Shown in pieces: positions 4,159 through 63,581 of a stretch of 64,000 nucleotides of DNA; within the stretch, counting starts at the first letter, position 1, and each line of letters starts with the position of its first letter. Both the position numbers and the translations under genes were made by a program. Location of the stretch: the NCBI GenBank assembly GCA_943350875.1, contig CALRAL010000001.1, forward strand, positions 68,992 through 132,991, given 5' to 3'. The notes under the pieces are model-generated. The model saw only the letters and a list, made by a program, of their open reading frames with translations, was not told the DNA's origin and made no database searches. The DNA is from Candidatus Nomurabacteria bacterium. GTDB taxonomy: Bacteria > Patescibacteriota > Minisyncoccia > Phycocordibacterales > UBA9973.

Positions 4159-5445
4159 ATGAAACTAAAAGAAATAATTAAAAAATTAAAGATAAAGAGG
4201 AGAATGATTGCGAGATTGGCAGCGATGCATTTTTATGGCAATCCTTCTTTAAAATTAAAGATTGTTGGCGTGACGGGGACAAATGGTAAAACTACAACTG
4301 CTACACTTTTGTACAAGATAGCCACAGCTTTGGGCTATAGGGCAGGGCTTATTGGCACTGTTGAGAATATAATTGCGGGAGAAAAGATATTGTCAGATGA
4401 CAATGCTCCGCAGACCACTCCCGACCCAATTTTCTTAAATAAATTACTTTCAAAGATGGTTGAGAAAGGATGTGAATATGTCTTTATGGAAGTCTCAAGT
4501 CATGCTATGGATCAAAACAGGGTGGCAGGGATAAACTTTACTGGAGGGATTTTTACAAATCTAACTCATGATCATTTGGATTATCATAAAAGTCTAGAGA
4601 ATTACTTTTTAGCAAAAAAGAAATTCTTCCAGATGTTGCCAAGTAGTGCTTTTGCTTTATCAAATGTTGATGATGAACATGGAGAGATGATGTTAGAAGG
4701 AATAAAGGCAAAGAAATTCCTTTATGGATTTAAGAAGGATGCTGATTTTAAGGGGGAAATTTTGAAACTTGATTTTAATGGGTTGGAAATGAATTTTAAT
4801 GGGGAAGTAATAAAAACTAAACTATTGGGTAAATTTAATGCCTATAATTTACTTTCAGTCTGGAGTGCTTGTAAACTACTTGGTTTTGATATGCCTGCCC
4901 GCAATGCTTTCAGTATAGCTGATGCAGGTGGGGAAAAAGTAAATAAAATTTTAGAAAATATAGAACCTCCAAGAGGCCGCTTCGACCATTTTCTTTCAAA
5001 AAGTGGAGTATTGGTAATTGTGGATTATGCTCACACTCCAGATGCGTTAGAGAAAATACTTTTGACTATAAAAGATATAAAAACAGAAAATGGATTATTG
5101 ATTTCTCTATTTGGTTGCGGAGGGGACAGAGATCCATTAAAAAGGAGGATTATGGGTAAAATTGGAGCAAATTTATCAGATATCGCTATTTTTACATCTG
5201 ACAATCCTCGTAGCGAGAACCCAGAGGACATCATTGCCGAGATGAAAACTGATTTATCTATGAATGATTCTAGAAAAGTTAAAATAATTGTGGATAGGCA
5301 TGAAGCTATAAAAGAGGCAGTAAAGGTAGCAAAACCTGGAGATATTATATTATGTGCTGGCAAAGGTCATGAGACCTATCAAGAGATAAAAGGCGCGAAG
5401 TATCATTTTAACGATATGGAAGAATTTAAGAAAGCGTATAATTAA
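4159..5445 (+). CDS. murE: UDP-MurNAc-tripeptide synthetase MurE (compact). It carries an in-frame palindromic insert.
   Basis: GVTGTNGKTTT Mur ligase P-loop, DYAHTPDAL and DNPRSENP (MurE signature). Confidence 0.85.
   Translation: MKLKEIIKKLKIKRRMIARLAAMHFYGNPSLKLKIVGVTGTNGKTTTATLLYKIATALGYRAGLIGTVENIIAGEKILSDDNAPQTTPDPIFLNKLLSKMVEKGCEYVFMEVSSHAMDQNRVAGINFTGGIFTNLTHDHLDYHKSLENYFLAKKKFFQMLPSSAFALSNVDDEHGEMMLEGIKAKKFLYGFKKDADFKGEILKLDFNGLEMNFNGEVIKTKLLGKFNAYNLLSVWSACKLLGFDMPARNAFSIADAGGEKVNKILENIEPPRGRFDHFLSKSGVLVIVDYAHTPDALEKILLTIKDIKTENGLLISLFGCGGDRDPLKRRIMGKIGANLSDIAIFTSDNPRSENPEDIIAEMKTDLSMNDSRKVKIIVDRHEAIKEAVKVAKPGDIILCAGKGHETYQEIKGAKYHFNDMEEFKKAYN
4894..4934 (+). repeat. GC-rich imperfect-palindrome element, family A, in frame inside murE. 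It encodes PARNAFSIADAGGE.
   Basis: cctgcccgcaatgctttcagtatagctgatgcaggtgggg; near-identical copies at 8477, 52615 and 63471. Confidence 0.8.
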
Positions 5446-5448
5446 ACT

Positions 5449-7122
5449 ATGCAAACAGAAACCAGGCAATGCAAAAAATGCAATCGAAGTTTTGTTCTAG
5501 AGCAAGACGATTTTTCTTTTTACGAAAAGATGAAAGTTCCTGTACCGAATATCTGCCCAGACTGTCGTTTTAAAATGAGGGCCATTTTTAGAAATGAACG
5601 TACTTTATATAATAGGACCTGTAATTTATGCAATCGCTCTATTATTACAATGTATAATCCGAATTCTCCTTACACTGTCTATTGTAATGACTGTTGGATT
5701 TCTGATAAATGGGATCCATATTCTTACGCTATGGATTATGATTCATCTAAATCTTTTTTTGAACAATTAAAAGAACTTATTATAAAAGTTCCAAAATCTG
5801 CCACTTATAGTAGTATTTCTGTTGGGGTGAATATCAACAGTGAATATGCTAATTTTGCAGGAGGTAATAAAGATGGGTATTTGATTTTTAATTGTGGACC
5901 AAATAATGAAAACATAGCTTATTCCCGCGGTGTAATAAAAAGTCGAGATGTTTTTGATGTTTATTATGCAGATGAAATAGAAAATACTTATGAAGGAGTT
6001 AGTGTTCATAAAAGTAATGGAATAGCTTGGGGTCAAAATGTATCCGATTGTATAGATTCACGTTTTATTTTGAATTGTTCAGGATGTCAGAATTGTTTTG
6101 GTTGTGTAAACTTAAGGCATAAATCTTATCATTTTTTTAATGAACCTCTTGAAAGAAATGAATGGTTAAAACGTGTATCAGAAATTTCTGGTAGTTTTAA
6201 AAAGACAGAAGAAATGAAAAAAAAGTTTACAGAATTCTCTCTTAAATTTCCATATCGAAGTAGTAATAACCTAAAAGTCACTAATTGTGAGGGAGATTAT
6301 ATTTTTGAATCAAAGAATTGTTATAAATGTTTTGAACTTTCTTTTTGTGAAGACATACGACATTCTTTTTCAGTAAAACGTGGTAAAGATTGTACTGATA
6401 TGATAGGTCATTGTCGCAGTTCAGAACTTCTATATAATGGAGTTGGAGTTGGGGCTGGCTCAAGGAATGTTATATGTTCATGGTGGGTTGAAAGTTCCCA
6501 AGATGTTCAATATTCATTTGCCACTCGTCAAAGTAATGATTGTGTAGGATGTGATGGTATAAAAAATGGTTCTTTTGTAATTCTAAATAAAAAATATACC
6601 AAAGAAGAATATCAAAAAATAAAAAATAATATTACAAAGGAGTTAAAAGATAAAAATATCTACGGTGATTTTTTCCCTACTGAACTTTCTTTCTTTGCTT
6701 ACAATGAAACAATTGGGCAAGATAATATGCCTATGACTAAAGAAGAAACAATCAAACAAGGTTTTCGTTGGGAAGATAATATTCAAAAAACAAAAAGAAA
6801 AGAAACCTTAAAGCCAGAGGAAATTCCAGATAATATAAGAGATGTATCAGATAATATTTTAAATGAAGTATTAGTTTGCATTAAATGTTCTAGAAATTAT
6901 CGGTTAATTAAACGCGAACTTGAATTTTACAAAAAAATGCTTATTCCTATCCCTAGAGAATGTTGGAATTGCCGTTTTACAAATCGCATAATTCGACGCG
7001 GGTCTTATAAATTCTTTGATCGTAAATGTTCAAATTGTAATAAGGATATACATACTAATTTGACGGAAAAGGTGGCACCAATAGTATATTGCGAGAAATG
7101 TTATCAGCAGGAAGTGATATAA
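5449..7122 (+). CDS. Large Cys-rich protein with tandem zinc-ribbon pairs at both termini (paralog 1 of 3)
   Basis: N-terminus CKKC...FYEKMKVPVPNICPDCR...LYNRTCNLC...VYCNDCW. C-terminus CIKC...FYKKMLIPIPRECWNCR...CSNC...IVYCEKCYQQEV. Central Cys-rich pseudo-repeats (NCSGCQNCFGCVNL...). Paralogs at 53207 and 59745. Confidence 0.8.
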   Translation: MQTETRQCKKCNRSFVLEQDDFSFYEKMKVPVPNICPDCRFKMRAIFRNERTLYNRTCNLCNRSIITMYNPNSPYTVYCNDCWISDKWDPYSYAMDYDSSKSFFEQLKELIIKVPKSATYSSISVGVNINSEYANFAGGNKDGYLIFNCGPNNENIAYSRGVIKSRDVFDVYYADEIENTYEGVSVHKSNGIAWGQNVSDCIDSRFILNCSGCQNCFGCVNLRHKSYHFFNEPLERNEWLKRVSEISGSFKKTEEMKKKFTEFSLKFPYRSSNNLKVTNCEGDYIFESKNCYKCFELSFCEDIRHSFSVKRGKDCTDMIGHCRSSELLYNGVGVGAGSRNVICSWWVESSQDVQYSFATRQSNDCVGCDGIKNGSFVILNKKYTKEEYQKIKNNITKELKDKNIYGDFFPTELSFFAYNETIGQDNMPMTKEETIKQGFRWEDNIQKTKRKETLKPEEIPDNIRDVSDNILNEVLVCIKCSRNYRLIKRELEFYKKMLIPIPRECWNCRFTNRIIRRGSYKFFDRKCSNCNKDIHTNLTEKVAPIVYCEKCYQQEVI

Positions 7123-7123
7123 A

Positions 7124-8521
7124 ATGAAAAATTATAAAGAATTTTTTAAGAGTAAAAAGATAACAGTTATGGGGCTAGGGATTTTAGGACGGGGGCTTGG
7201 ATATACGAGATTCTTAGCAGAATGCGGGGCTGATTTAATTGTGACGGATTTAAAAACAAAAGAACAACTCAAAACTTCAGTACAAGTATTAAAAAAATAT
7301 AAAAATATTAAATTTGTACTTGGGGAGCATCGATTAGAGGATTTTAGAGGTAGAGATATGATTATCAAATCCGCAGGGGTACCTCTTGATTCTATTTATA
7401 TCGCTGAAGCTAAAAAAAATCGAATTCCGATTAAGATGGATGTTTCTTTGTTTGTAAAATGTGCACCGAAAGTGATGTTGATAGGAGCAACAGGCACAAG
7501 GGGGAAATCAATGACAACTGCACTTATTTACGAAATTCTCAAAAAGAATGAGAAATTCTTAAAAAGAAAAATCTATATTGGAGGCAATGTTAGAGGCATA
7601 GCTACTTTGCCCTTATTAAAAAAGGTAAAAAAGAATGATATTTTGGTTTGTGAATTAGATTCTTGGCAATTACAAGGGTTTGGCGATGCGAAAATTTCTC
7701 CGCACATTTCTGTATTTACCAGTTTTATGCCGGATCATATGAATTATTATAAAGGTAGTATGAAAGATTATTTCAACGATAAAGCTAATATTTTCAAATA
7801 CCAAAATGAAAATGATTTTTTAATTGTTCGTCCAGATGTTCAGAAATTAATTCCTAAAAATATAAAGTCAAAGTTAATCGTAGTAAGCAAAAAAGAAGTT
7901 GAAAACTGGAATTTCATAGTACCCGGAGAGCATCAGAAGGAGAATCTGGCTTGTACAGTGGAAATGGCTAAAATCCTTGGTATTCCAATGCAATCTATCA
8001 AAAAAGCGATGGAGAAATTCAAAGGTTTAGAAGGGCGCTTACAACTTTTAAAAATATACAAGGGTATAAAGATTTATAATGACAACAATGCAACTACCCC
8101 AGAAGCAACAGTTGCAGGTATAGAAGCATTAATAACCGCTAGGAAGGACCTAGCGGTAGACCTAGCGGTAAAAAATATTATTTTGATTTGTGGGGGGGCA
8201 GATAAAAATCTTGATTTAGATAATTTTGTAAAAGTTGTGAATAAACGTTGTAAGGCTGTAATAATGATTCCAGGGACAGGGACAGAGAAGCTTATGAGTG
8301 AAAAGTTGAAAGTAGAAAGTTATAAAGTTGAAAGTTTAGAAGAAGCAATTAAAAAATCGTTAGGCCTTGCCTCACGACAGGATACCGTTCTTTTCTCCCC
8401 AGCGTTTGCTTCTTTTGGAATGTTTAATAATGAATATGAAAGGAATGATTTGTTTGTAAAATTAGTGAAGAAATTGCCTGCCCGCAATGCTTACAGCATA
8501 GCTGTTGCAGGCGGGAAATAA
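7124..8521 (+). CDS. murD: UDP-N-acetylmuramoylalanine--D-glutamate ligase MurD
   Basis: N-terminal GLGILGRGLGYTRFLAECGA Rossmann region, GATGTRGKS P-loop, Mur ligase C-domain. The C-terminal tail LPARNAYSIAVAGGK is encoded by a family A repeat. Confidence 0.8.
   Translation: MKNYKEFFKSKKITVMGLGILGRGLGYTRFLAECGADLIVTDLKTKEQLKTSVQVLKKYKNIKFVLGEHRLEDFRGRDMIIKSAGVPLDSIYIAEAKKNRIPIKMDVSLFVKCAPKVMLIGATGTRGKSMTTALIYEILKKNEKFLKRKIYIGGNVRGIATLPLLKKVKKNDILVCELDSWQLQGFGDAKISPHISVFTSFMPDHMNYYKGSMKDYFNDKANIFKYQNENDFLIVRPDVQKLIPKNIKSKLIVVSKKEVENWNFIVPGEHQKENLACTVEMAKILGIPMQSIKKAMEKFKGLEGRLQLLKIYKGIKIYNDNNATTPEATVAGIEALITARKDLAVDLAVKNIILICGGADKNLDLDNFVKVVNKRCKAVIMIPGTGTEKLMSEKLKVESYKVESLEEAIKKSLGLASRQDTVLFSPAFASFGMFNNEYERNDLFVKLVKKLPARNAYSIAVAGGK
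8477..8516 (+). repeat. Family A GC-rich palindromic element forming the C-terminal tail of murD
   Basis: cctgcccgcaatgcttacagcatagctgttgcaggcggga. Confidence 0.8.
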
Positions 8522-14681: not shown

Positions 14682-17141
14682 ATGGCAAAAAAGAATGAAG
14701 ACATAATAGAAAATGTGCCTACTGGAAGCATTATTCCTGTCGATGTGATTTCTGAAATGAAAGAGTCATATTTGGCGTATGCTATGTCCGTCATCACTTC
14801 TCGTGCCTTGCCAGATGTCAGAGACGGATTAAAGCCAGTGCATAGGAGAATTTTATTTTCTATGAATGAACTTGGACTCACTGCTTCAGCGCGTTTCAGA
14901 AAGTCTGCCTTGGTAGTCGGAGATGTGCTCGGAAAATACCATCCGCATGGCGATACGGCAGTGTACGACTCGATGGTGGGTATGGCGCAGGATTTCTCAT
15001 ATCGTTACCCACTCGTTTTGGGTCAAGGGAACTTTGGTTCTATAGATGGCGACAATGCAGCAGCGATGCGTTATACCGAAGCGAAAATGTCCAAAATTTC
15101 TTCTGAACTTTTGCGTGATTTAGAAAAAGAAACAATTGATTTTCGTCCAAACTATGATCAGACTCGCCGAGAGCCGATAGTTTTCCCTTCGGCTGTGCCT
15201 TCGCTTTTATTAAATGGCACACTTGGTATCGCTGTTGGCATGGCTACAAATATTCCCTCGCACAATCTAGCCGAGGTGATAGACGCTACCAATTATTTAA
15301 TTGAAAATAGTGATGCAACGACTGAAGACCTAATGCAATTCATTAAAGGTCCTGATTTCCCGACTGGAGGAGTGGCATATGGATATAAAGACATGCTTCA
15401 TGCGTATTCTACTGGCCGTGGAGGAGTGGTGTGTCGGGGGGAAGCGGAAATAGTGGAAGAAAAAAACAGTAGTTTCCAAATTATTATTACTTCGATTCCT
15501 TTTCGGGTAAACAAAGCGAATTTGATAATGTCTATCGCAGAATTGGTACAGGAAAAAAAGCTCGAAGGTATCAAAGGTCTGCGAGATGAATCCACAAAAG
15601 ATATTCGTATAGTTATCGACTTGAAAAACGGCGCTTTTCCTGAAAAAGTTTTAAACTATATTTATAAAAATACTCAACTTGAATCCAATTTTAATTTTAA
15701 TATCGTGGCCTTGGTGGATGGGGTGCCACAGACTCTTTCTTTAAAATCCATCCTTTCAGAATTTATTTCTCACCGCAAAGAAGTGGTCCGTCGTAGGTCA
15801 GAATATGATTTAAGAAAAGCAGAGGAACGTGAACATATTTTACTTGGGCTTAAGAAAGCGCTTGATAAGATTGATCGTGTTATCACTGTCATTCGTGCTT
15901 CCAAAGATGCACAATTGGCTAAAGCTAACTTAATGAAAGAATTTAAGTTTTCAGATTTGCAGGCATCTGCTATTTTAGAGATGAAGTTACAAAAGCTCGC
16001 AGGTCTCGAAAGGAAACAAGTGGAAAATGAACTTGAAGAAAGACAAAATTTTATCAAAGAAATAAAAGAACTTTTAGCTAGTCCTAAAAAGATGCTTGGA
16101 GTTATATCTGCTGAACTAAAAGAAATTAGAGAAAAGTACAAAGACGATAGAAGGACCAAGATAGTCAAAGGTGGAGTAAAAGAAATTTCTGACGAAGATT
16201 TAATTCCAGAAAAGGAAGCGATGCTCGTATTCACCGCCGGCGGATATGTGAAGCTCACTGATCCATCAGAATATCATGCGCAAAAGCGTGGTGGGGTGGG
16301 GGTAGTGGATCTAGAAACAAAAGAAGAGGATTTTGTAACGATGCTAGTAGCTGGATCTACGCATGATGATGTGCTTTTCTTTACGAATCTGGGTAAAGCG
16401 TACCAGATAAAAATGTTTGATATACCAGAGGGTAGGCGTGCTACAAAAGGAAAATCTATTATGAACTTTTTGTCTCTGGCCGGAGACGAAAAGGTGACTT
16501 CTATTTTGCCAATACCAAAAGAATTTAAGAAAGCTCCTGTGTCGCTGATGTTGGTGACTAAAAATGGTACAGCAAAAAAGATGTCCAGTGTTAGTTTTGA
16601 AGATGTACGTAGGAGCGGAATCATCGCTATAAAGCTCGATAAAGGAGATGAGCTCATTTCAGCCCTTTTGACCGACAAAGGTGATGAGGTCATGTTAGCG
16701 ACTGCAGGGGGGCAATCCATACGCTTTAAAGAGTCAGATATTAGGGAAATGGGTAGAACAGCTGGTGGAGTGAGGGGTATAAAACTGGCTAAAAGTGATG
16801 AAGTTATCAGTGTAGATGTTGTTCGAAAAGATAAAAAAGACGGATCATTCTTAACCATGAGTGCGAATGGATTTGGTAAGAAAACACCCTTAAAAGAGTA
16901 TAAAGTGCAGAAAAGAGGTGGTTCTGGAATCAAAACTGCCAAAGTGACCCCTAAAACAGGCAAATTAATCGTGGCCAAAGTGCTTACCGGCGAGGAAGAA
17001 GAATTGATTGCTATGTCTAAAAAGGGACAAGTCATCCGCACCGCTTTGAAAGAAATATCTTCTCTCGGCCGTCAAACTCAAGGTGTGACAGTCATGCGTC
17101 TCCGTGCTGGCGACGGCATAGCATCTATCGCCTGCGCGTAG
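14682..17141 (+). CDS. gyrA: DNA gyrase subunit A
   Basis: [26 protein letters not shown], catalytic Tyr region, and C-terminal beta-pinwheel repeats. Confidence 0.93.
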
Positions 17142-17147
17142 TATAAA

Positions 17148-17170
17148 ATGTCAAAGACCGTCTTTGACAT
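17148..17170. repeat. Left terminal hairpin palindrome of the IS200-like unit
   Basis: 11-bp arms with a 1-nt centre; the tnpA stop codon lies inside it. Confidence 0.8.
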
Positions 17171-17798
17171 CAAAAATTAGTGTTTCTTTTATGAAACTTT
17201 CTTGATCTCCAAAAGTCGATAATAATAGTTCTTTATTTATTATCGATAAATTTCTGTTATTAGCGAAATCATCATAACTATTCCACAAATGATCTGATGG
17301 ATGTTTTACAATTTTATCTTTTACTGGATTCATGTGTATATAAGTCGATGTCCACATTAATTGTGGATTATTTTCTATTAATACAGATTTGAATTTATCT
17401 TGGAATATGTGCCCAACTCGTTTGTATTTTTTATTTATATATTTTACATAACTTGTGCAAAGTTTTGAAATCAATTTTGAAACGGATATATCTCCAACTT
17501 GTTCAATAAGTAGATGAAAGTGATTAGGCATGAGACAGAAAGCATGCAGTTTAAAATTGTTTTTATTTGTTTCAGTAATCCTAATTCTAGAGTAGGGCAT
17601 TGAAGTTATTTTTTCTTTATTTAGTTCTTCTTCTGTAAATCCTAGACATAATCCAAGTCTAAAGAGAAAAGCTTTGTAATCTTGCTCGTCAAGAAATATT
17701 TTTTCCTTATTATTGCCTCTATTATAAACATGAAAAATATGTCCGGAGGCAAATTTTTTGTAATCTCTGTTATTTATAGATACAGTATAGCATGTCAA
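17151..17798 (-). CDS. IS200/IS605-family Y1 (HUH) transposase TnpA / REP-associated tyrosine transposase-like
   Basis: SGHIFHVYNRGNNKEKIF N-terminal motif, HUH motif LMPNHFHLL, and C-terminal catalytic-Tyr block YIHMNPVKDKIV...W.SY. Confidence 0.8.
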   Translation of the reverse strand: MTCYTVSINNRDYKKFASGHIFHVYNRGNNKEKIFLDEQDYKAFLFRLGLCLGFTEEELNKEKITSMPYSRIRITETNKNNFKLHAFCLMPNHFHLLIEQVGDISVSKLISKLCTSYVKYINKKYKRVGHIFQDKFKSVLIENNPQLMWTSTYIHMNPVKDKIVKHPSDHLWNSYDDFANNRNLSIINKELLLSTFGDQESFIKETLIFDVKDGL

Positions 17799-17814
17799 AG
17801 ACGGTCTTTGACAT
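17792..17814. repeat. Right terminal hairpin palindrome of the IS200-like unit
   Basis: Reverse complement of the left copy; it overlaps the tnpA start codon. Confidence 0.8.
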
Positions 17815-17822
17815 GAGGTTTG

Positions 17823-17865
17823 TTGATAACTTTTATGAGGAAATACTACTTTGTAGTATAATTAC
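17823..17865 (+). promoter_or_regulatory. Promoter (TTGATA ... TTTGTAGTATAAT) for the methyltransferase gene
   Basis: ttgataacttttatgaggaaatactactttgtagtataat; the TTGTAGTATAAT -10 type also recurs at 2957 and 3580. Confidence 0.45.
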
Positions 17866-17868
17866 TGC

Positions 17869-18393
17869 ATGTTTACCGAGCCAGTAAAAAATCTAAAAGC
17901 TTTTGGTCTGCGTGACGATATGGTCGTGGCGGATTTGGGAGCAGGGACTGGATTTTATACTATTCCGGCTGGGTTTATGGTGCCTCGAGGCAAAGTCTAT
18001 GCTGTCGAAATACAGAAAGATTATTTAGTGACTCTAAAGAATAAAGTGGTGGAGGCAAATTTACATAATGTGGAGATTTTTTGGGGCAATATTGAAAAAC
18101 TCGGGGGCACAAAAATAAGGGACAAAGTAGTAGATGCAGTCATCGCTTCTAACATACTTTTTCAAGTCGTAGATAAAGAAAAATTTATCGAAGAAATAAA
18201 TAGAATTTTAAAACCAGGTGGCAGAGTTCTACTTATAGATTGGTCTTCTTGGATATCTATAGTGAGTGCTGGTTCTAAAAAAAGTGTTTCAAAAGACGAA
18301 GCTAGAAAAATGTTTGAAGAAAAGGGTTTTATTTTTGAGCGAGAAATTAACACTGGGGCGCATCACTATGGTATAATATTTAGTAAGTTGTAA
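17869..18393 (+). CDS. Class I SAM-dependent methyltransferase
   Basis: Motif I VADLGAGTGFYT; ILKPGGRVLLID. Confidence 0.75.
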   Translation: MFTEPVKNLKAFGLRDDMVVADLGAGTGFYTIPAGFMVPRGKVYAVEIQKDYLVTLKNKVVEANLHNVEIFWGNIEKLGGTKIRDKVVDAVIASNILFQVVDKEKFIEEINRILKPGGRVLLIDWSSWISIVSAGSKKSVSKDEARKMFEEKGFIFEREINTGAHHYGIIFSKL

Positions 18394-21673: not shown

Positions 21674-21706
21674 TTCCGCCAGAGGCGGATCAGCCTTTGG
21701 CTGAAT
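21674..21706 (+). repeat. Two-hairpin GC-rich motif, family D (CCGCC-AGA-GGCGG / CAGCC-TTT-GGCTG)
   Basis: ttccgccagaggcggatcagcctttggctgaa. The copy at 51961-51992 differs only in its loop nucleotides. Confidence 0.7.
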
Positions 21707-23416: not shown

Positions 23417-23498
23417 TGCCGTGGGAGGGACTCGAACCCTCAAGTCTTGCGACACTAGTTCCTAAGACTAGCGCGTGTACCAGTTTCGCCACCACGGC
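23417..23498 (-). tRNA. tRNA-Leu (anticodon TAG), long variable arm, no encoded CCA
   Basis: Reverse complement GCCGTGGTGGCGAAACTGGTA...CTAGTCTTAGGAACTAG...GGTTCGAGTCCCTCCCACGGCA; acceptor GCCGTGG/CCACGGC. Confidence 0.8.
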
Positions 23499-23599
23499 AT
23501 ATTTTTTTTGTGGTCAGGAATAGTTTTTTACTAAAAACTTCCCCGACCAAGGCTCGTGCCGTCGCACTCCGCCTCGCAAAAAGTACTTATGTACTTTTG

Positions 23600-23672
23600 T
23601 GCGCCCTGAAGGGATCGAACCTTCGACCTTATCCTTAAGAGGGATCTGCTCTACCAGCTGAGCTAAGGGCGC
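23600..23672 (-). tRNA. tRNA-Lys (anticodon CTT)
   Basis: Reverse complement GCGCCCTTAGCTCAGCTGGTAGAGCAGATCCCTCTTAAGGATAAGGTCGAAGGTTCGATCCCTTCAGGGCGCA. Confidence 0.8.
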
Positions 23673-23740
23673 ATGCTATTCAATTTATCATAAAAATTAA
23701 AATTTTGAAAGTTTTATAAAAAATGTTAGATTATAGGTTA

Positions 23741-23815
23741 TGGCCTGGTAGCCAAGTAGTAAGGCATTCCTCTGCAAAAGGAATATACGTGGGTGCGATT
23801 CCCACCCAGGCCTCC
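23741..23815 (+). tRNA. tRNA-Cys (anticodon GCA), encoded CCA
   Basis: GGCCTGGTAGCCAAGTAGTAAGGCATTCCTCTGCAAAAGGAATATACGTGGGTGCGATTCCCACCCAGGCCTCCA. Confidence 0.8.
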
Positions 23816-23830
23816 AGGTAGTAAATAATT

Positions 23831-23912
23831 GCCCGGATGGCGGAACTGGTATACGCGCACGACTTAAAATCGTGTCTCGCAAGGGATGTGGGTTCGATTC
23901 CCACTCCGGGCA
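23831..23912 (+). tRNA. tRNA-Leu (anticodon TAA), long variable arm
   Basis: GCCCGGATGGCGGAACTGGTA...CACGACTTAAAATCGTG...GGTTCGATTCCCACTCCGGGCA. Confidence 0.8.
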
Positions 23913-30992: not shown

Positions 30993-31079
30993 GCGTCGGT
31001 GGCGGAGTGGTCAATCGCAACAGACTGTAAATCTGTCGCCCTATGGGCTACGAAGGTTCGAATCCTTCCCGGCGCACCA
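30993..31079 (+). tRNA. tRNA-Tyr (anticodon GTA), long variable arm, encoded CCA
   Basis: GCGTCGGTGGCGGAGTGGTCAATCGCAACAGACTGTAAATCTGTCGCCCTATGGGCTACGAAGGTTCGAATCCTTCCCGGCGCACCA. Confidence 0.8.
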
Positions 31080-32979: not shown

Positions 32980-33000
32980 ATAATCTTTTAAAGATTTTAA

Positions 33001-33030
33001 AAAAACGGAAGCAAAGCTTCCGTTTTTTTA
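33001..33030. terminator. Bidirectional rho-independent terminator
   Basis: aaaaacggaagcaaagcttccgttttttta between convergent genes. Confidence 0.85.
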
Positions 33031-39146: not shown

Positions 39147-40342
39147 AAATAAAAAAAACTGTTTTTGTGGGGATGTCAGGGGGAGTAGATAGTGCTGTGT
39201 CAGCAACTTTACTTAAAGAACAAGGGTATGATGTAGTGGGTGTTTTCATCCGTACTTGGCATCCAGAATTTTTAAAATGCAATGAAGAAGAGGAGAGGCT
39301 AGATGCTATGCGTGTGGCAGCATTTTTAGATATTCCTTTTTTGACTTTTGATTTTGAGAAAGTGTACAAGAAAGAAGTGGCTGATTATATGATTTCTGAA
39401 TATAAGGCTGGTAGGACTCCGAATCCAGATGTGATGTGCAACAAAGAAGTGAAATTCGGCGCATTTCTCAAAAAAGTTGTTTCGATGGGTGCGGATTATG
39501 TGGCGACTGGGCATTATGCACAAACCAATAAATACACAGGGTTCCCCTGTGTTACACAGGGGAACCCTGTGTATTTAAACCTCGGGAAGCTCAAAATAGA
39601 AAGGGAAAACTTTGGTTTGTTAAAAGGAAATGATGTTACAAAAGATCAGAGTTATTTTCTTTGGATTTTAAAACAAGAACAATTAAAAAAGATTTTGTTT
39701 CCAGTTGGACATTTAAAGAAAACAGAAGTTCGTAAATTAGCCAAGAAATTAAATTTACCTGTGGCAGAGAAAAAGGATAGTCAAGGGATTTGTTTTTTGG
39801 GAGCTATTGATTTGAAAGAATTTTTAAAACATTACATAAAAGAAAAAAAAGGTGAGGTATCTAATACAGAAGGTGAGAAGATTGGATTTCATGACGGGGT
39901 AGTTTTTAATACTTTAGGAGAAAGACATGGTTTTACTATTACCAAGAAAAGTCCTAATGATGGGCCTTATTATGTAGTAGGTAAAGACTTAAAGAAGAAT
40001 ATTTTATACGTGAGTCAAGACAAAAACCATCTTGCAAAGAGTACGGATATTTTTTTACTAAAAAATTCCTCGTGCTCACGCCAGTCGCTCTCGCAAGTCT
40101 CTTTGCAAGATGGTTTTTGTCTTTGTTTAAGAGGCACTAATTGGATTTCAAAGATCCCAGAATTAAATAAAGATTACACTGCACAGATTCGTTATCATGG
40201 TAGTTTCTTACCTTGTAGAATAAAAGTTCTAAAAGGCGACAAAGCTGAGATTCACTTTAAAGAAAATGTGTTAGTTGCCCCTGGTCAGTCTTGTGTAGTT
40301 TATGATAAAGATGTTGTTCTTGGGGGAGGAATAGTTGTATAA
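39143..40342 (+). CDS. mnmA: tRNA 2-thiouridylase MnmA (contains an in-frame palindromic insert)
   Basis: VFVGMSGGVDSAVSA PP-loop, GHYAQ, KDQSYFL. Confidence 0.88.
   Translation: MKIKKTVFVGMSGGVDSAVSATLLKEQGYDVVGVFIRTWHPEFLKCNEEEERLDAMRVAAFLDIPFLTFDFEKVYKKEVADYMISEYKAGRTPNPDVMCNKEVKFGAFLKKVVSMGADYVATGHYAQTNKYTGFPCVTQGNPVYLNLGKLKIERENFGLLKGNDVTKDQSYFLWILKQEQLKKILFPVGHLKKTEVRKLAKKLNLPVAEKKDSQGICFLGAIDLKEFLKHYIKEKKGEVSNTEGEKIGFHDGVVFNTLGERHGFTITKKSPNDGPYYVVGKDLKKNILYVSQDKNHLAKSTDIFLLKNSSCSRQSLSQVSLQDGFCLCLRGTNWISKIPELNKDYTAQIRYHGSFLPCRIKVLKGDKAEIHFKENVLVAPGQSCVVYDKDVVLGGGIVV
39533..39575 (+). repeat. 43-nt near-perfect palindrome, family B, in frame inside mnmA. It encodes YTGFPCVTQGNPVY.
   Basis: ATACACAGGGTTCCCCTGTGT-T-ACACAGGGGAACCCTGTGTAT. 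Confidence 0.85.
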
Positions 40343-51960: not shown

Positions 51961-51992
51961 TTCCGCCCAAGGCGGATCAGCCTAGGGCTGAA
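51961..51992 (+). repeat. Two-hairpin GC-rich motif, family D, second copy (CCGCC-CAA-GGCGG / CAGCC-TAG-GGCTG)
   Basis: ttccgcccaaggcggatcagcctagggctgaa between rplM and rpsI. Confidence 0.7.
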
Positions 51993-52599: not shown

Positions 52600-53238
52600 A
52601 TGCAACAAGATGAACCTGCCCGCAATGCTTTCAGCACAGCTGATGCAGGCGGGGAAATTAAAAAAGAGGAACAATTACCCGAAGAAAGCCCAGATTCCGA
52701 GGTTGTAGAGTTTGAATTCAATGAAGACGGGGAAGAGGATCTGAAAAAGACTTTAAAGAAGCTTCGGGCTGATTTGAAGGCTTGTAAAGCTGAAAAGGCA
52801 GAGTATTTGACCGGCTGGCAGAAAGAGCGAGCTGATTTTGTTAATTATAAAAAAGAGGAAGACGACAGGAAAACCATGTTTTCAGAATCAGTACGAGAGC
52901 GAATGCTCACTCGCTTTTTAAATGTGATGGATAGCTTCAATATGGCATTCCAAAACAAAGAAGCTTGGGAAAAAGTAGATGAGAACTGGCGTAAAGGTGT
53001 AGAATATATTCACAGCCAGTTCAACACTGTTTTTGAAGAATATGGAGTAAAAGAGATAGGTGAAGTGGGGGAGAGTTTTGATCCAAATATTCACCAGCCG
53101 GTAGAAATGATAAAAACCGACCAGAAAGATTCTGATCACAAAGTGGCTGTAGTTATCCAGAAAGGGTATAAACTTGGCGAGCGTGTTATCCGTCCGGCGA
53201 GAGTGAATGTTTATGAATATCATGAACAAAGAGAATAA
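52600..53238 (+). CDS. grpE: Nucleotide exchange factor GrpE (the N-terminus is built from a family A repeat)
   Basis: GrpE coiled-coil plus C-terminal beta domain; N-terminus MQQDEPARNAFSTADAGGEI. Confidence 0.85.
   Translation: MQQDEPARNAFSTADAGGEIKKEEQLPEESPDSEVVEFEFNEDGEEDLKKTLKKLRADLKACKAEKAEYLTGWQKERADFVNYKKEEDDRKTMFSESVRERMLTRFLNVMDSFNMAFQNKEAWEKVDENWRKGVEYIHSQFNTVFEEYGVKEIGEVGESFDPNIHQPVEMIKTDQKDSDHKVAVVIQKGYKLGERVIRPARVNVYEYHEQRE
52615..52653 (+). repeat. Family A GC-rich palindromic element at the grpE 5' end
   Basis: cctgcccgcaatgctttcagcacagctgatgcaggcgggg. Confidence 0.8.
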
Positions 53239-54922
53239 AACTTGTCAAAACTGTAAAAAAGATTTCACAATAGAACCTGATGATTTTTCATTTTATGAAA
53301 AAATAAAAGTCCCTCCACCGACTTTTTGTCCAGAATGTAGATTTCAACGTAGGTATGCTTGGAGAAATGAAATTACACTCTATCGAAGACCATGTGATTT
53401 GTGTGGAAAAAGTTCTGTTACAATTTACTCTCCAAAAAAATCTTATAAAGTATATTGTCCTAATTGTTGGTGGGGGGATGGATGGGATGCGAAGGAATCT
53501 TTTCAAGATTTTGACTTTTCACGTCCGTTTTTTGAACAATTTCAAGAACTTCAATTTAAAATTCCAAGAATAGCTCTTTTAACCAAAAATAGTGTTAATT
53601 CAGAATACACTAATCATTCAGGGGATAATAAAAATTGTTATATGTGTGTTTCTACTTTTTATTCTGAAAATATAATGTACTCAAATAATATTTGGGAAAA
53701 AGGGCAGGATTTATGTGATTGTACAATGGTGATAAAAAATGGAGTTTTGTCTTACGAATGTATAGATTCTTCTGATATTTATAATTGTCAGTTTTGTATA
53801 CTTTTAAAAAATTGTACTGATTGTTTTTATTGCTATGACTTGCATAATTGTCAAAATTGTTTTTTATCTTTTAATTTAAGAAACAAAAATTATATGATTT
53901 TAAATCAACAATATTCTAAAGAAGAATATTTTAAGAAAATTAAAAATTTTAATCTAAATTCCAATAATTCAAGACAAAATCTTTATAAGCAATTTTTAGA
54001 TTTAATGAAAAATAAAGCATTGCATAAATTTGCTATTATTGAGAAATCGGTAAATTCTTTTGGAAATATGCTTTATAATTCAAAAAACGCTAATCAGGTT
54101 TTTGACTCAGACCATGTAGAAGATACCAAATACGGCATAATACTACCTGGTGTCCAAAATTCGATGGATGTTTGCCATGTTGGTTTTAATTGTGAACTTA
54201 CCTATGAAAGTCATGCTATTGTAAGATCATCTCGTGTTTTATTTTCTCATTTATCCTATGATAATAATGATATTCAGTATTGTGATTCGTGTCATTATAG
54301 TGATAATTTGTTTGGTTGTTGTGGAATAAAGAAAGGAAGTTATATGATTTTTAATAAAAAATATTCCAAAGAAGAATATCTAAAGTTAAAAGAAAAAATA
54401 ATTGAACACATGAAAAGAACAGGAGAGTATGGAAATTTCTTTCCACCCAAACTTTCACCATTTGGCTACAATGAAAGCCAAGCTCAAGTTTATTTACCAA
54501 TGGCAAAAGAAAAAGCTTTATCTTTTGGTTTTAATTGGGAAGATGATATGCCCGGAACCCACGGAAAAGAAACTACGGATTCAAAAAATATATCGGATAA
54601 TATTTTTGAAGTTTTAGATTCCATAACTAATGAAATATTAAAATGTGAAGATTGTGGTAAAAATTACAATATAATTCTAGCAGAATTACAATTTTATAAA
54701 AATGAAAATATTCCTATTCCACATTTTTGTTACAAATGTCGTTATAAAAAAAGAATAGCATTAAGATTACCAAGAAAACTTTGGCACAGGTCTTGTATGT
54801 GTGATAAAATTGGTCATTTTCATGGAGATGATAAATGCAATGTAGAATTTGAGACGAGTTATGCTCCAGAAAGGCCAGAAATAGTGTATTGTGAAAAATG
54901 TTATCAGCAAGAGATTTATTAA
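53207..54922 (+). CDS. Large Cys-rich protein with tandem zinc-ribbon pairs at both termini (paralog 2 of 3); the start probably lies at ATG 53213-53219 and overlaps the grpE stop
   Basis: CQNCKKDFTIEPDDFSFYEKIKVPPPTFCPECRFQRR...LYRRPCDLC...VYCPNCWWGDGWD. C-terminus CEDC...FYKNENIPIPHFCYKCR...YAPERPEIVYCEKCYQQEIY. Confidence 0.8.
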   Translation: MFMNIMNKENKTCQNCKKDFTIEPDDFSFYEKIKVPPPTFCPECRFQRRYAWRNEITLYRRPCDLCGKSSVTIYSPKKSYKVYCPNCWWGDGWDAKESFQDFDFSRPFFEQFQELQFKIPRIALLTKNSVNSEYTNHSGDNKNCYMCVSTFYSENIMYSNNIWEKGQDLCDCTMVIKNGVLSYECIDSSDIYNCQFCILLKNCTDCFYCYDLHNCQNCFLSFNLRNKNYMILNQQYSKEEYFKKIKNFNLNSNNSRQNLYKQFLDLMKNKALHKFAIIEKSVNSFGNMLYNSKNANQVFDSDHVEDTKYGIILPGVQNSMDVCHVGFNCELTYESHAIVRSSRVLFSHLSYDNNDIQYCDSCHYSDNLFGCCGIKKGSYMIFNKKYSKEEYLKLKEKIIEHMKRTGEYGNFFPPKLSPFGYNESQAQVYLPMAKEKALSFGFNWEDDMPGTHGKETTDSKNISDNIFEVLDSITNEILKCEDCGKNYNIILAELQFYKNENIPIPHFCYKCRYKKRIALRLPRKLWHRSCMCDKIGHFHGDDKCNVEFETSYAPERPEIVYCEKCYQQEIY

Positions 54923-55020
54923 CAACCTTGCAGAAGCAAGGCTTCTGCACAATGTTTACCACTTTTCTGAATAAGTGGTATAATAAATTTAAAGGTCGGG
55001 GTTAGTTCTACTCTAATTTT

Positions 55021-59744: not shown

Positions 59745-61469
59745 ATGCAATCTGAGCCTAGAGTTTGTCAAAATTGTAAAAAAGAATTCACAATCGAATC
59801 AGACGATTTTGGATTTTATGAGAAAATAAAAGTTCCTCCACCGACTTTTTGTCCAAATTGTAGAGCTCAACGTCGAAATGCTTGGAGGAATACTTTTACT
59901 TTATATTCTCGAAAATGTGATTTGTGTGCAAAATCAGTCATTTCTCTTTATGCTCCAGATTCTGAAATAATAGTTTATTGTAATAAATGTTGGTGGAGTG
60001 ATAAGTGGGATCCAAAATCTTATGCTCAAGATTATGACTTTTCTAAACCATTTTTTGCGCAATTTATAGATTTTGTTAAAAAAGTTCCACACATTTCAGT
60101 AGTCAATGATAACGGGATTGCTAGTTTGAACTGTGAATATACCCATGATTGGTGGTTTTCAAAGAACTGCTATATGGCATTTTCTGGCTGGTATGTGGAG
60201 AATGTTATGTATAGTTATTTTATAACTGCTGGTAGAAATATTATGGATACTATGATCAATATGGCTGAATCAGAATACTTATATGAATGTATAAATTGTT
60301 CGCATGGTTATAATGTTAAATATTCACAATATGCTGGAGCTTGTATTGATTCTCAATTTCTTTATGATTGTCGAGACTGCTCAAATTGTTTTATGTCTTT
60401 TGGACTTAGAAATAAAAAATATTTTTTTAAAAATCAGCAATATACGAAAGGAGAGTATGAAAAAATATTAAATAGTTATAAACTTGAAACTTTTTCTGGT
60501 GTAAAAAAAGCGCAAGAAGAATTTGATAAACTCATTTTAAATTATCCTCGTAGGTATGCTTGGCATAAACAAAATAAAGATTGTTCTGGTGATGTGATTT
60601 CTTATAGCAAAAATACTAAAAACTGTTTCATTGCTAAAAGATGTGAGAATTGTAGATATTCAGAATATCCCACTAAGGACAAGGATTGTTATGATATAAC
60701 GATGACTGGTGAAACATCTGAATGTTATGAAGGAGTTGTTGTGGATCATTCGCAGTTAAACTTTTTTGGAATTTTCTCTGTTAAAAGTCAGGATATAAGA
60801 TATACGCAACATTGTCACTTTTCAAAACATCTTTTTGGTTGTGTTGCGCTTCGTAGTAATAGTTATTGTATTTTCAATAAGCAATATACAAAAGAAGAAT
60901 ATGATACTTTAGTAAGAAAAATTATTGAGCAAATGAATGAAATGCCTTATGTGGATAAAAATGGTTGTGAATATCGTTATGGGGAATTTTATCCAATTGA
61001 ACTTTCTTTGTTTGGATATAATGAAACTCTTGCATGTGAACAGATTCTACTTTCAAAGGAAGAAGCTCTAAATAAAGGTTATAAGTGGCAAGACAATTTA
61101 CAACGAACAACTAAGAAAGAGACATTATTACCACAAAATATTCCAGATTCAATTAAAGATATTAGTGATAATGTCATACAAGAAATACTTAGTTGTGTTG
61201 AATGTAAAAGGAATTATAAAATTGTTCAAAATGAATTAATTTTTTATAAAAAAATGCAGATTTCTATTCCAAGGAAATGTTTTTATTGTCGTCATGCAAA
61301 TAGAATAAAACACACAAATCCTTTTAAACTTTGGCATCGATCTTGCATGTGCGACAAAACAAATCATGGGCATGAAGGAAATTGTCTAAACGAATTTGAA
61401 ACAAGCTATGCTCCAGAAAGACCTGAGATAGTTTATTGTGAAAAATGTTATCAGCAAGAGATTTATTAG
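59745..61469 (+). CDS. Large Cys-rich protein with tandem zinc-ribbon pairs at both termini (paralog 3 of 3)
   Basis: CQNCKKEFTIESDDFGFYEKIKVPPPTFCPNCRAQRR...LYSRKCDLC...VYCNKCWWSDKWDP. C-terminus CVECKRNYKIVQNELIFYKKMQISIPRKCFYCR...YAPERPEIVYCEKCYQQEIY. Confidence 0.8.
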   Translation: MQSEPRVCQNCKKEFTIESDDFGFYEKIKVPPPTFCPNCRAQRRNAWRNTFTLYSRKCDLCAKSVISLYAPDSEIIVYCNKCWWSDKWDPKSYAQDYDFSKPFFAQFIDFVKKVPHISVVNDNGIASLNCEYTHDWWFSKNCYMAFSGWYVENVMYSYFITAGRNIMDTMINMAESEYLYECINCSHGYNVKYSQYAGACIDSQFLYDCRDCSNCFMSFGLRNKKYFFKNQQYTKGEYEKILNSYKLETFSGVKKAQEEFDKLILNYPRRYAWHKQNKDCSGDVISYSKNTKNCFIAKRCENCRYSEYPTKDKDCYDITMTGETSECYEGVVVDHSQLNFFGIFSVKSQDIRYTQHCHFSKHLFGCVALRSNSYCIFNKQYTKEEYDTLVRKIIEQMNEMPYVDKNGCEYRYGEFYPIELSLFGYNETLACEQILLSKEEALNKGYKWQDNLQRTTKKETLLPQNIPDSIKDISDNVIQEILSCVECKRNYKIVQNELIFYKKMQISIPRKCFYCRHANRIKHTNPFKLWHRSCMCDKTNHGHEGNCLNEFETSYAPERPEIVYCEKCYQQEIY

Positions 61470-61520
61470 CATTTGGTTAGTTTATTAGCAAAATATTGGA
61501 TTTTATTGTAAAATATAGCT

Positions 61521-63581
61521 ATGGAACTTCCAGAATTACCCCCAAATAAAGACCTTACATATATTGGCCAAACGACTTTTAGGGATAAAAATACACTTTT
61601 TGGTATAAAGCGTAAAGACAGGCGTCAGCATGTGTATATCTTGGGTAAGTCAGGTACCGGTAAATCGGCGCTGATGTTTAATATGATTATCCAAAATATC
61701 CAGAATGGCGATGGTGTTTGTATGGTGGATCCGCACGGGGAGAATGTCGAAGCTATTTTATCTGCTATTCCTCCACACAGAATGAAAGATGTAGTTTATT
61801 TTAATCCAGCGGACACTGATTTTCATATTGGTTTCAATGTGCTCGAACTCATTGATCCAAAATATAAACATTTAGTGGCGTCAGGACTGATGGGAATATT
61901 TACCAAGATTTGGGCCAATGCATGGAGTGCTCGAATGGAATACATTTTAAATAATACTATCTTGGCACTACTAGATACTCCAGGGTCCACGCTTCTAGGT
62001 ATCCCTCGTATGTTAGTGGATAAAGATTATCGTCAGAAAATAATTTCAAATTTAAAAGACCCTGTTATTAAAGCTTTTTGGGTGCATGAATATGAAGCAT
62101 GGCAGGAGAAATTCAGGAATGAAGCTATCGCACCGATTCAAAATAAAGTCGGACAATTCCTTTCTACTTCTATCATCAGAAATATTGTCGGGCAAGCAAA
62201 AAGCACGATAGATATTTTTAATATTATGAATGAAGGGAAGATTTTCTTGGTAAACGTTTCTAAAGGACGTATCGGGGAGGACAATTCTTCTCTCTTAGGA
62301 GGAATGATTATTACTAAGATTCAGCTAGCTGCTATGGAGCGCGTGCGTATTTCAGAAGAGAATAGGAAAGATTTTTATCTATATGTCGATGAATTTCAAA
62401 ACTTTGTGACTGAAGCTTTTGCTGGGATTTTGTCTGAAGCTAGAAAATACAGGTTGAATTTAACTGTAGCGCATCAATACACGGCGCAACTGGTGGTGGA
62501 TAAAAACTCAAGTGTCAGGGATGCTATTTTCGGTAACGTGGGTACAATGATTGTTTTTAGAGTGGGTGCAGATGATGCTAAATTTTTAGAAAAAGAGTTT
62601 GAGCCGGAATTTATTCCTCAAGACATAGTGAACTTGCCAAATTTCCGTATTTATTTAAAGTTGATGATAGATGGTACTACTTCTAGACCATTTTCTGCCA
62701 AGACTTTGCCTCCAATGGTGAAATCTGGTAATAAACAAGTAGAAGACGAAGTGATCAGATCTTCTAGGAATTTATATTGCAAGCCAAAGGAAGTGGTAGA
62801 GAGAGAAATAAATAATTGGAGTGGCATGTCCTTGGGTAATGAAAATGATCCAGGTAGTATGGAAAAATTCGAAGCAGTTTGTTCTATTTGCAAGAAAAAC
62901 ACAACAGTTCCATTTAAACCAGAGCCAGGTAGACCTGTGTATTGTAGAGACTGTATAGCAAAGATGAAATCAGGAGAATTACAACCAGTAAAGGGTTCAA
63001 TGAATCAGATAAAATATGATGAATCAAAATTCTTCAAACCCTTGGCAGATTTAGGAATCGAATTTGAAAATAAAGAAGTGCAAAATAATTTGCAACCACA
63101 AAAACCTCAGAAAACCGGTATATTTTCTTCTATTAAAAAAGTTTTTCAAAAGCCATCTTTACACCCCCATAGTTCTTTTAAAGAAAAAACAGCTATTTTG
63201 GCTCAAACTAATCAGATAAAAGCTTCGCCCGTAGGTCTACAGCCGAGGGAAATTCCAAAAGAAAATCTAACTTTGAAAGAAATTTTAAATAAAACTTTAG
63301 CTGAAAAAGAGAAAGTTGTTCCAACTCCTATTTCTTTGAGTGAATTAAAACCCAAAATAGAACCAATAATACCAAATCATACTTCGAACGATCGCTCTGC
63401 GAGCCCAGAAGAGATGGATAAATTAAAAAATCTTATTTCTACTACAAAAGTAGAGGAAGTAAAGAAAGAACCTGCCCGCAATGCTTCGCAAAGCGATGCA
63501 GGCGGGGAAATCAAAGAAGAATCTCAAAAACAGTTGGTTAAAGAAGTGCCAGAAGATGTCTTAAAAAAGATTTTAGAGTAA
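61521..63581 (+). CDS. FtsK/HerA/TraD(VirD4)-superfamily P-loop ATPase (soluble) with C-terminal zinc ribbon
   Basis: Walker A ILGKSGTGKSALMFNMI, Walker B FYLYVDEFQNF, then ARKYRLNLTVAHQY. C-terminal CSICKK...PEPGRPVYCRDC. Family A repeat-encoded segment EPARNASQSDAGGEI near the C-terminus. Confidence 0.65.
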   Translation: MELPELPPNKDLTYIGQTTFRDKNTLFGIKRKDRRQHVYILGKSGTGKSALMFNMIIQNIQNGDGVCMVDPHGENVEAILSAIPPHRMKDVVYFNPADTDFHIGFNVLELIDPKYKHLVASGLMGIFTKIWANAWSARMEYILNNTILALLDTPGSTLLGIPRMLVDKDYRQKIISNLKDPVIKAFWVHEYEAWQEKFRNEAIAPIQNKVGQFLSTSIIRNIVGQAKSTIDIFNIMNEGKIFLVNVSKGRIGEDNSSLLGGMIITKIQLAAMERVRISEENRKDFYLYVDEFQNFVTEAFAGILSEARKYRLNLTVAHQYTAQLVVDKNSSVRDAIFGNVGTMIVFRVGADDAKFLEKEFEPEFIPQDIVNLPNFRIYLKLMIDGTTSRPFSAKTLPPMVKSGNKQVEDEVIRSSRNLYCKPKEVVEREINNWSGMSLGNENDPGSMEKFEAVCSICKKNTTVPFKPEPGRPVYCRDCIAKMKSGELQPVKGSMNQIKYDESKFFKPLADLGIEFENKEVQNNLQPQKPQKTGIFSSIKKVFQKPSLHPHSSFKEKTAILAQTNQIKASPVGLQPREIPKENLTLKEILNKTLAEKEKVVPTPISLSELKPKIEPIIPNHTSNDRSASPEEMDKLKNLISTTKVEEVKKEPARNASQSDAGGEIKEESQKQLVKEVPEDVLKKILE
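63471..63506 (+). repeat. Family A GC-rich palindromic element (shortened variant) inside the ATPase C-terminal region
   Basis: cctgcccgcaatgcttcgcaaagcgatgcaggcggg. Confidence 0.75.

Follow-up and report, generated by a model that had tools for sequence, protein, structure and literature searches.

The unit analyzed here occupies positions 17148–17814 of a 64-kb stretch of Candidatus Nomurabacteria contig CALRAL010000001.1 (hereafter the window, meaning the whole stretch of DNA that was analyzed) and consists of one minus-strand gene enclosed by two 23-nt hairpin-forming palindromes (Table 1). The gene encodes a predicted Y1/HUH nuclease similar to the tyrosine transposases associated with repetitive extragenic palindromic (REP) sequences, the REP-associated tyrosine transposases (RAYTs). 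Both flanks are perfect palindromes and mutual reverse complements that differ only in the central base, C in one and G in the other, which confirms base for base the inverted pair reported in the preliminary description of this DNA. With up to three mismatches allowed, the flank palindrome matched only these two sites of the window (0.00 expected from 100 shuffles), and looser patterns of the palindrome family returned nothing else in the window. As single-stranded DNA the flanks fold into a stem of 10–11 bp with energies from −8.3 to −10.1 kcal/mol (z from −6.3 to −7.8), equaled by no shuffle; 4 of the 11 pairs are GC. The downstream palindrome begins 7 nt past the gyrA stop codon and encodes the last five residues of the protein, VKDGL, together with its TGA stop (17151–17153), and the upstream one ends 15 nt from the canonical start codon position (17775–17777). 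The location of the unit between gyrA and a gene for an S-adenosylmethionine (SAM)-dependent methyltransferase was likewise as described earlier. Next to the upstream hairpin lies a box, TTGTT(G/A)ATAAC, that occurs once in the window and comes after the hairpin in 25 or more distinct related loci; it may serve the divergent gene pair as a promoter or an operator. The TTGACA of the hairpin itself was rejected as the −35 box of a RAYT promoter, since the start codon follows only 10–15 nt downstream and no −10 box is present at the right spacing.

The protein carries the HUH motif NHFHLL (residues 92–97; H93 and H95 at window positions 17514–17522) and the block YIHMNPV with the catalytic Y153 (17340–17342), as had been read from the minus-strand frame. 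Its score against the Pfam profile Y1_Tnp (PF01797) was 45.1 bits at a cutoff of 23, and the best NCBIfam family was the REP-associated tyrosine transposase (REP_Tyr_transpos, NF047646), with 63 bits at a cutoff of 80; the IS200 equivalog model NF033573 gave 17.3 bits at a cutoff of 55. Profile searches, proposed earlier as a check, therefore uphold the Y1 assignment, place RAYT as the nearest family at a score below its cutoff and do not recover the IS200 family. The sole PDB match by sequence was the E. coli TnpA-REP structure 4ER8 (E value 0.034 for the single sequence and 0.0066 for the profile), in an alignment that spans the HUH motif and YIxxNPVK. An AlphaFold model had low confidence (pLDDT 61) and was used for fold class only; its top Foldseek matches in PDB were all Y1 transposases of the IS200/IS605 group (IS608, ISDra2, and IS200 TnpA). 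The search for homologs yielded 1,750 proteins, and the best 120 were mostly 208 aa long and 72%–82% identical to the window protein, apart from the identical entry P0001; where a source was named, it was Paceibacterota, Nomurabacteria, or other Patescibacteria. Several close homologs bear the JGI name "REP element-mobilizing transposase RayT." An alignment of 33 homologs contained 61 invariant columns, including H93, H95, and Y153, so the catalytic residues are conserved, and a protein identical to that of the window was found in five assemblies. Judged by these profile, motif, and structure matches, the protein is a Y1/HUH enzyme and probably of RAYT type, as the preliminary description had suggested.

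The surroundings of the gene are those of a resident rather than of a recent arrival. The gene order S1, metallo-hydrolase, gyrA, RAYT, methyltransferase, and solute-binding protein (SBP) was kept in 84 of 90 RAYT loci from genomes and metagenomes, the others being mostly short contigs, and the position beside gyrA is thus fixed across a large clade of Patescibacteria. Mean identity to the window proteins was highest for gyrA (81.5%), followed by RAYT (72.7%), the methyltransferase (61.9%), and SBP (58.5%). The divergence of RAYT is correlated with that of the methyltransferase (rho 0.45, p 2e-4); the gene co-diverges with its neighbors and therefore evolves like a conserved chromosomal gene. 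This RAYT occurs in one copy in the 64-kb window. The gyrA–methyltransferase junction, which had been singled out for a search for an empty site, was compared between related loci (designated L and a number). In L074 gyrA is followed by a palindrome, RAYT, a second palindrome, and the SBP gene, and in L105 by one palindrome and the SBP gene, so that presence and absence of RAYT are bounded by palindromes. A site without RAYT does exist, then, but because nearly all relatives have the gene, the L105 state is most simply read as loss of RAYT between two palindromes. In L077 the slot beside gyrA is occupied by a NUDIX gene between variant palindromes. On this comparative evidence, the RAYT next to gyrA is an old, vertically inherited, single-copy resident of a Patescibacteria clade and not a mobile element. 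For annotation this means that, in Patescibacteria genomes, a "transposase" call of this kind denotes a resident, conserved gene and not the insertion of a mobile element.

The bracketing by hairpins proved to be as regular as the gene order. Hairpins of the form TGTCAA(A/G)G-core-C(T/C)TTGACA were present at both ends in about 75 of 79 metagenomic RAYT loci. The two hairpins of the window are inverted relative to each other, and among relatives both inverted and direct pairs occur. Of 76 distinct loci, 50 have a distance of 10 or 15 nt between the upstream hairpin and the canonical start, and in 58 the stop codon lay within the downstream hairpin; the RAYT C-terminus reads xVK(D/E/G)xL. The anatomy is therefore a hairpin, 10–15 nt, the start codon, the gene, and a stop inside the second hairpin. 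The core of the hairpin exists in 14 variants that differ between lineages. Nevertheless, 48 of 58 loci have one and the same core in both flanks, irrespective of its orientation (mean 6.3 and maximum 20 in 10,000 permutations), and of 21 extra copies within the locus, 17 agree with the flanks in their core (permutation mean 3.4). Flanks and nearby extra copies thus have the same core within a genome and different cores between genomes, a pattern that points to concerted evolution of the flanking hairpins. The 32.9-kb contig Ga0209541_10002754 (L182 and L184) harbors two copies of this RAYT 16 kb apart, only one of them at the gyrA site, and their cores differ (AAAGGCCACC... and AAGGGGCATCC...).

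More distant RAYT-like paralogs (27%–38% identity) are each bracketed by their own, different hairpin, and this rule holds for at least six unrelated hairpin sequences around different paralogs, which ties hairpin identity to the enzyme. The genome of the window contains an example. L193, which overlaps the window at 100% identity and is the same genome, carries a second Y1_Tnp gene (L193:4642-5364, 222 aa, 36% identical) located 1.7–2.3 kb upstream of window position 1 and about 19 kb from the window RAYT. It belongs to a different subfamily and is bracketed by ATATCAAGG-ACTAC-CCTTGATAT and an inverted copy, with its TAG stop in the hairpin loop; this hairpin resembles that of the window flanks with compensatory changes.

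These features suggest that the unit is probably a REPtron, that is, a gene flanked by its own palindromic repeats (Di Nocera 2013, PMC3733652), here a single-copy and vertically inherited RAYT-type gene between cognate hairpins. In such a system the enzyme would bind the hairpin in single-stranded DNA and would nick and rejoin it via Tyr153 with an HUH-bound metal, in the way E. coli TnpA-REP acts on REPs. Nicking and rejoining could copy the hairpin or re-homogenize its copies in trans. Acting in cis, the upstream hairpin may occlude the translation start, the sole start codon in the window lying within the stem, the downstream hairpin may close the transcript, and both together would hold expression very low. 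In IS200/IS605 elements, the end hairpins are recognized as single-stranded DNA, and in IS200 hairpins near the tnpA start limit expression.

Copies of the hairpin outside the RAYT locus were found in relatives. When 185,579 species genomes were scanned for the 21-mer TGTCAAAGAC-N-GTCTTTGACA, it was located in 108 stretches, nearly all from Patescibacteria. Most copies had no RAYT nearby, and exact solo copies numbered up to 8 per genome, with about zero expected. The outer stem was perfectly conserved across genera; stem variants carried compensatory changes (for example, AAGGAC/GTCCTT), and two variants occurred side by side in one genome. Beyond ±1 nt the flanks of 122 copies were unconserved and had no consistent T-run. 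Long open reading frames (ORFs) contained 67 of 125 copies, nearly all read as (M/V/L)SKTVFD, with no strand bias (central base G in 32 and C in 30). The host genes in relatives include uvrC, uvrA, ligA, a murC-like gene, and those for LeuRS, ThrRS, and ArgRS.

Several of the intragenic copies are replacements rather than insertions, among them those in ThrRS. The segment EMSKTVFDML aligns without gaps to DYARQLQDEL of the S. aureus enzyme, and the site shows no length variation in 120 Patescibacteria orthologs, in which EYAKKVFDML is the common state; the ancestral nucleotide sequence at the site is given as TATGCAAAAAAAGTTTTTGAT. In nucleotides, about 11 of 24 bases are changed relative to a non-carrier, and two carriers share identical 23 nt despite diverged synonymous sites on either side. 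The eight carriers are scattered over the tree and require eight parsimony changes on a rough neighbor-joining tree. Further replacements of equal length were found in LeuRS, the MurC-like gene, a reverse-transcriptase gene, and LigA, and other sites gained 5–13 residues. At the MurC-like site, genomes carry different core variants, and that of L166 is the one in the RAYT flanks of the same genome. Simple in-frame insertion is ruled out as the origin of the copies in ThrRS and several other sites by their equal length, and holds at some loop sites, for example, in LigA (+6 aa).

Several observations weigh against a REPtron. The RAYT profile score lies below its cutoff, and the structure model is of low confidence. 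No conserved unpaired tag of the GTAG type was found beside the stem in 122 copies. In-gene copies in relatives replace codons at constant length, a pattern not expected of cut-and-paste or copy-in transposition. At the gyrA locus the hairpins also bracket genes other than RAYT, such as NUDIX in L077 and GrpB in L055. Beyond the two flanks there is no copy in the approximately 84 kb of this genome that was read, which extends about 10 kb past the 3' end of the window and about 7 kb past its 5' end; counting the 23-mer, as had been proposed, gave the two flanks alone. The "repetitive" part of REP is therefore seen in relatives only, at no more than 8 exact copies per genome. Finally, the canonical start codon is lost in the window. 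Among 76 distinct loci, relatives start seven codons inward of the in-hairpin TTG, with ATG in 64 and GTG in 8, and this position is ATA in the window and in only one other locus, L123. The TTG inside the hairpin (17796–17798) is thus the first available and the only usable start. The earlier statement that both stop and start lie inside the hairpins holds for the TGA and for this TTG, with the qualification that relatives begin the gene further in.

The loss of the canonical start, with a TTG only inside the hairpin, suggests that in this genome the window gene either has very low expression or is in incipient decay. That it is becoming a pseudogene, so that the system would be a relic here even if active in relatives, agrees with the rare ATA codon and the lack of solo copies in this genome, but we regard it as unlikely. 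The frame of 215 codons is intact and retains every invariant residue, the in-frame TTG is available, the MTCY... extension is common to other homologs that retain the ATG, and the identical protein recurs in the five assemblies.

If the hairpins were instead gene-boundary elements acting at the level of RNA or transcription (terminators, mRNA stabilizers, or translational occluders) independently of the enzyme, the Y1 protein would be domesticated and its association with them positional. Their occurrence at gene ends would fit, including those of the NUDIX, GrpB, methyltransferase, and patatin genes bracketed at the locus, and a consensus scan marked 17791–17815 as terminator-like. IS200 itself uses hairpins against read-through and to hide the ribosome-binding site. 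However, most copies have no following T-run, their flanks are unconserved, and more than half of the 125 lie inside long ORFs. The bracket rule, moreover, holds with at least six unrelated hairpins around different RAYT paralogs, and cores within a locus agree far more often than expected by chance. This explanation is therefore quite unlikely. Generic Rho-independent terminators were rejected on the low GC content of the stem, the inconsistent T-run, and the copies within ORFs. A common terminator occurring without tnpA had been named as an outcome that would contradict the earlier description; many copies in relatives indeed have no tnpA nearby, but the lack of a T-tract and the location of half of the copies in genes show that this is not a terminator family. 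An Rfam scan of the window recovered five tRNAs only and no known RNA family for the hairpin.

Alternatively, the palindrome could be a double-stranded site for a dimeric protein, such as a parS/matS-like organizer or an operator, or a DNA-uptake signal, with intragenic sites arising by substitution under selection or drive. Low copy number (1–8 per genome), perfect conservation across genera, in-gene sites without length change, host genes for genome maintenance and aminoacyl-tRNA synthetases, and the location of 7 of the 8 copies of one relative on the 164-kb contig bearing gyrA and RAYT would all suit such a site. Half-sites, however, almost never occur alone (132 versus 128 full palindromes in 808 kb), unlike those of uptake sequences, and half-sites resembling an uptake signal are thereby ruled out. 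The unpaired core would not be read by a dimer, yet it is faithfully copied within a locus and varies between genomes; two stem variants coexist in one genome; and the tight bracket around RAYT, with the stop codon in the hairpin, would be left unexplained. We consider a dimer-bound or uptake site very unlikely. Hardly tenable, and largely refuted, is the autonomous IS200/IS605-type insertion sequence (IS) simply inserted between gyrA and the methyltransferase gene that the preliminary description had proposed: the Y1/HUH domain, the fold resembling TnpA of IS608 and ISDra2, and the RAYT-free site of L105 speak for it, but the IS200 model fails, both ends are one perfect palindrome instead of a left end and a right end that differ, the site is the same in 84 of 90 loci, divergence is comparable to that of neighboring housekeeping genes, the window holds a single copy, and there were no matches in 2.9 million viral contigs. 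A phage or viral origin was rejected on the same zero matches of the 21-mer.

Simple transposition does not account for the length-neutral copies, and we hypothesize enzyme-driven hairpin exchange or templated conversion. In a specific form of this idea, which is tentative and rather doubtful, the resident RAYT would rewrite the hairpin in place, swapping the master "head" of the genome into pre-existing quasi-hairpins by length-neutral conversion. If so, the same 21–23 nt would arise independently at the same codons of ThrRS, LeuRS, MurC, UvrA/C, and LigA, copies at orthologous sites would bear the core variant of the RAYT of their own genome, and the small accessory genes by gyrA, each bracketed by the same palindromes in a cassette-like manner, would be hairpin-bounded exchangeable cassettes. 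A recurrent length-neutral hairpin in essential genes would, if enzyme-driven, represent a mode of repeat spread outside current models of transposition. The surprising features, namely, the outer stem shared across genera, the enzyme-specific cores, and the length-neutral in-gene copies, reside in relatives and not in the window.

The closest known systems are E. coli TnpA-REP with REP/BIME (4ER8; Messing 2012, PMC3479197) and the Pseudomonas RAYT/REPIN systems (Bertels and Rainey 2011, PMC3116915; Bertels 2017, PMC5581495). The unit shares with them a single-domain Y1/HUH protein with HUH and YxxxNPV(K) motifs, single copy, vertical inheritance, and flanking palindromes of its own. The link between REP and RAYT in the literature rests on the same kind of association evidence (PMC5581495, PMC3733652). 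The pairing of different paralogs with different repeats is also common to RAYT/REP systems. Compared with known REPs, the repeat is a perfect palindrome of 21–23 nt with a 1–5-nt center and no GTAG-type tag, many genera share an identical outer stem, solo copies number 0–8 and not tens to hundreds, and about half of the copies in relatives are intragenic. Compared with known RAYTs, the final five codons and the stop of the gene lie within the repeat, and the protein is longer (208–215 aa) and under the NCBIfam cutoff. IS200/IS605 elements (IS200, IS608, and ISDra2) are similar in catalytic fold and predicted chemistry and in having hairpins at both ends. Unlike them, the unit is not multi-copy and, on this evidence, not mobile, its ends are identical, a tnpB partner is missing, and it scores only 17 of the required 55 bits against the IS200 model. 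Small palindromic repeats in frame inside genes were reportedly described by Ogata in 2000 as Rickettsia palindromic elements (RPE). REPs in frame within housekeeping genes, notably those of replication and repair such as uvrA, have been described (PMC3733652). Both intragenic REPs and RPE are described as residue-adding insertions, whereas several copies here replace an equal number of ancestral codons, with ThrRS free of length variation, carriers scattered, and almost every copy in a single frame (SKTVFD).

RAYT/REP systems are known from several bacterial phyla, chiefly Proteobacteria and Cyanobacteria; a literature search found no paper on RAYT/REP in Patescibacteria. The system of the Patescibacteria is stripped down, with tiny genomes, few copies, a perfect palindrome, a fixed gene position, and 14 core variants paired with their own enzymes, and this makes enzyme–hairpin specificity and co-evolution testable by short oligonucleotides.

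Table 1. Features of the RAYT locus, palindrome-bounded genes and intragenic copies in relatives, and other hairpin families. Positions without a prefix refer to the window
Feature	Position	Strand	Remark
Downstream (3') flanking palindrome, ATGTCAAAGAC-C-GTCTTTGACAT	17148..17170	.	Fold and mismatch search
RAYT-type Y1/HUH nuclease gene (predicted)	17151..17798	-	215 aa from TTG start
Upstream (5') flanking palindrome, ATGTCAAAGAC-G-GTCTTTGACAT	17792..17814	.	Fold and mismatch search
Conserved box TTGTTGATAAC	17820..17830	+	Between upstream hairpin and methyltransferase gene
gyrA	14682..17141	+	Convergent conserved neighbor (context, outside the element)
SAM-dependent methyltransferase	17869..18393	+	Divergent conserved neighbor (context)
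GrpB gene between palindromes	L055:3614-4183		
Methyltransferase gene between palindromes	L049:4762-5633		
Patatin-like gene between palindromes	L006:1498-2434		
NUDIX gene between palindromes	L077:4149-4699		
Intragenic palindromes in essential genes	L003:1073, L053:5053, L004:1124, L016:6636, L024:6789, L066:3070		SKTVFD frame; about 60 more
Hairpin family CCTGCCCGC-(17-21 nt)-GCAGGCGGG	4894-4932, 8477-8515, 52615-52653, 63471-63506; L193:1916		
CTCCCC...GGGGAG hairpin	20717, 36800		
Double hairpin, TCCGCC-n-GGCGGA then TCAGCC-n-GGCTGA	21675-21704, 51962-51991; L193:3817-3847		
49-nt double palindrome, ACACAGGG-TTCC-CCTGTGT and inverse	39529-39577		In frame within ORF
Hairpin AAACGGAAGC-AAA-GCTTCCGTTT	32998-33030		Family flanking another RAYT paralog in L017, L114, and L146

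The window contains several other hairpin families, and the preliminary description had offered the resident RAYT as a mechanistic source for four of them, named A to D, while noting that their sequences differ from the ends of the RAYT unit. The difference was borne out: the CCTGCCCGC, CTCCCC, TCCGCC/TCAGCC, and 49-nt families showed no similarity to the flanks, and none of them flanks either Y1 gene. Since, in addition, the approximately 84 kb of this genome contain no extra copy of the hairpin of either resident RAYT, a mobilizer role for families A–D is unsupported; the paralogs, besides, have hairpins of their own. Cross-mobilization of other hairpin families by the resident RAYT is conceivable. 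A link between this RAYT and the other families of the window was otherwise rejected, the hairpin at 32998-33030 being an exception that is tied to the family of a different paralog; it also resembles a bidirectional terminator.

In the CCTGCCCGC family, two copies lie within long ORFs and read PARNA..DAGGE, other genomes also contain near-identical copies (L023, L104, and L108), and an associated enzyme was not found. The halves of the TCCGCC/TCAGCC double hairpin recur in other Patescibacteria at 16 and 9 loci, respectively. The ORF with the 49-nt double palindrome resembles mnmA (ADYVATGHYAQT...), a name given by eye only, and single copies of its hairpin are present in L096, L184, and L185.

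Three diverged paralogous genes, with stretches 60%–90% identical, are located at 5458–7124, 53231–54924, and 59754–61471; about 0.6 kb upstream of each of the first two lies a CCTGCCCGC hairpin. Just past the 3' end of the window, L192:12231-15439 contains two EcoRI-methylase-like genes, a GmrSD/HNH gene, and a PemK toxin gene; this cluster adjoins genes for DUF87/TraG-like ATPases and may be a defense or mobile island. The five tRNA genes are found at 23417–23912 and 30993–31076, four of them clustered and on both strands.

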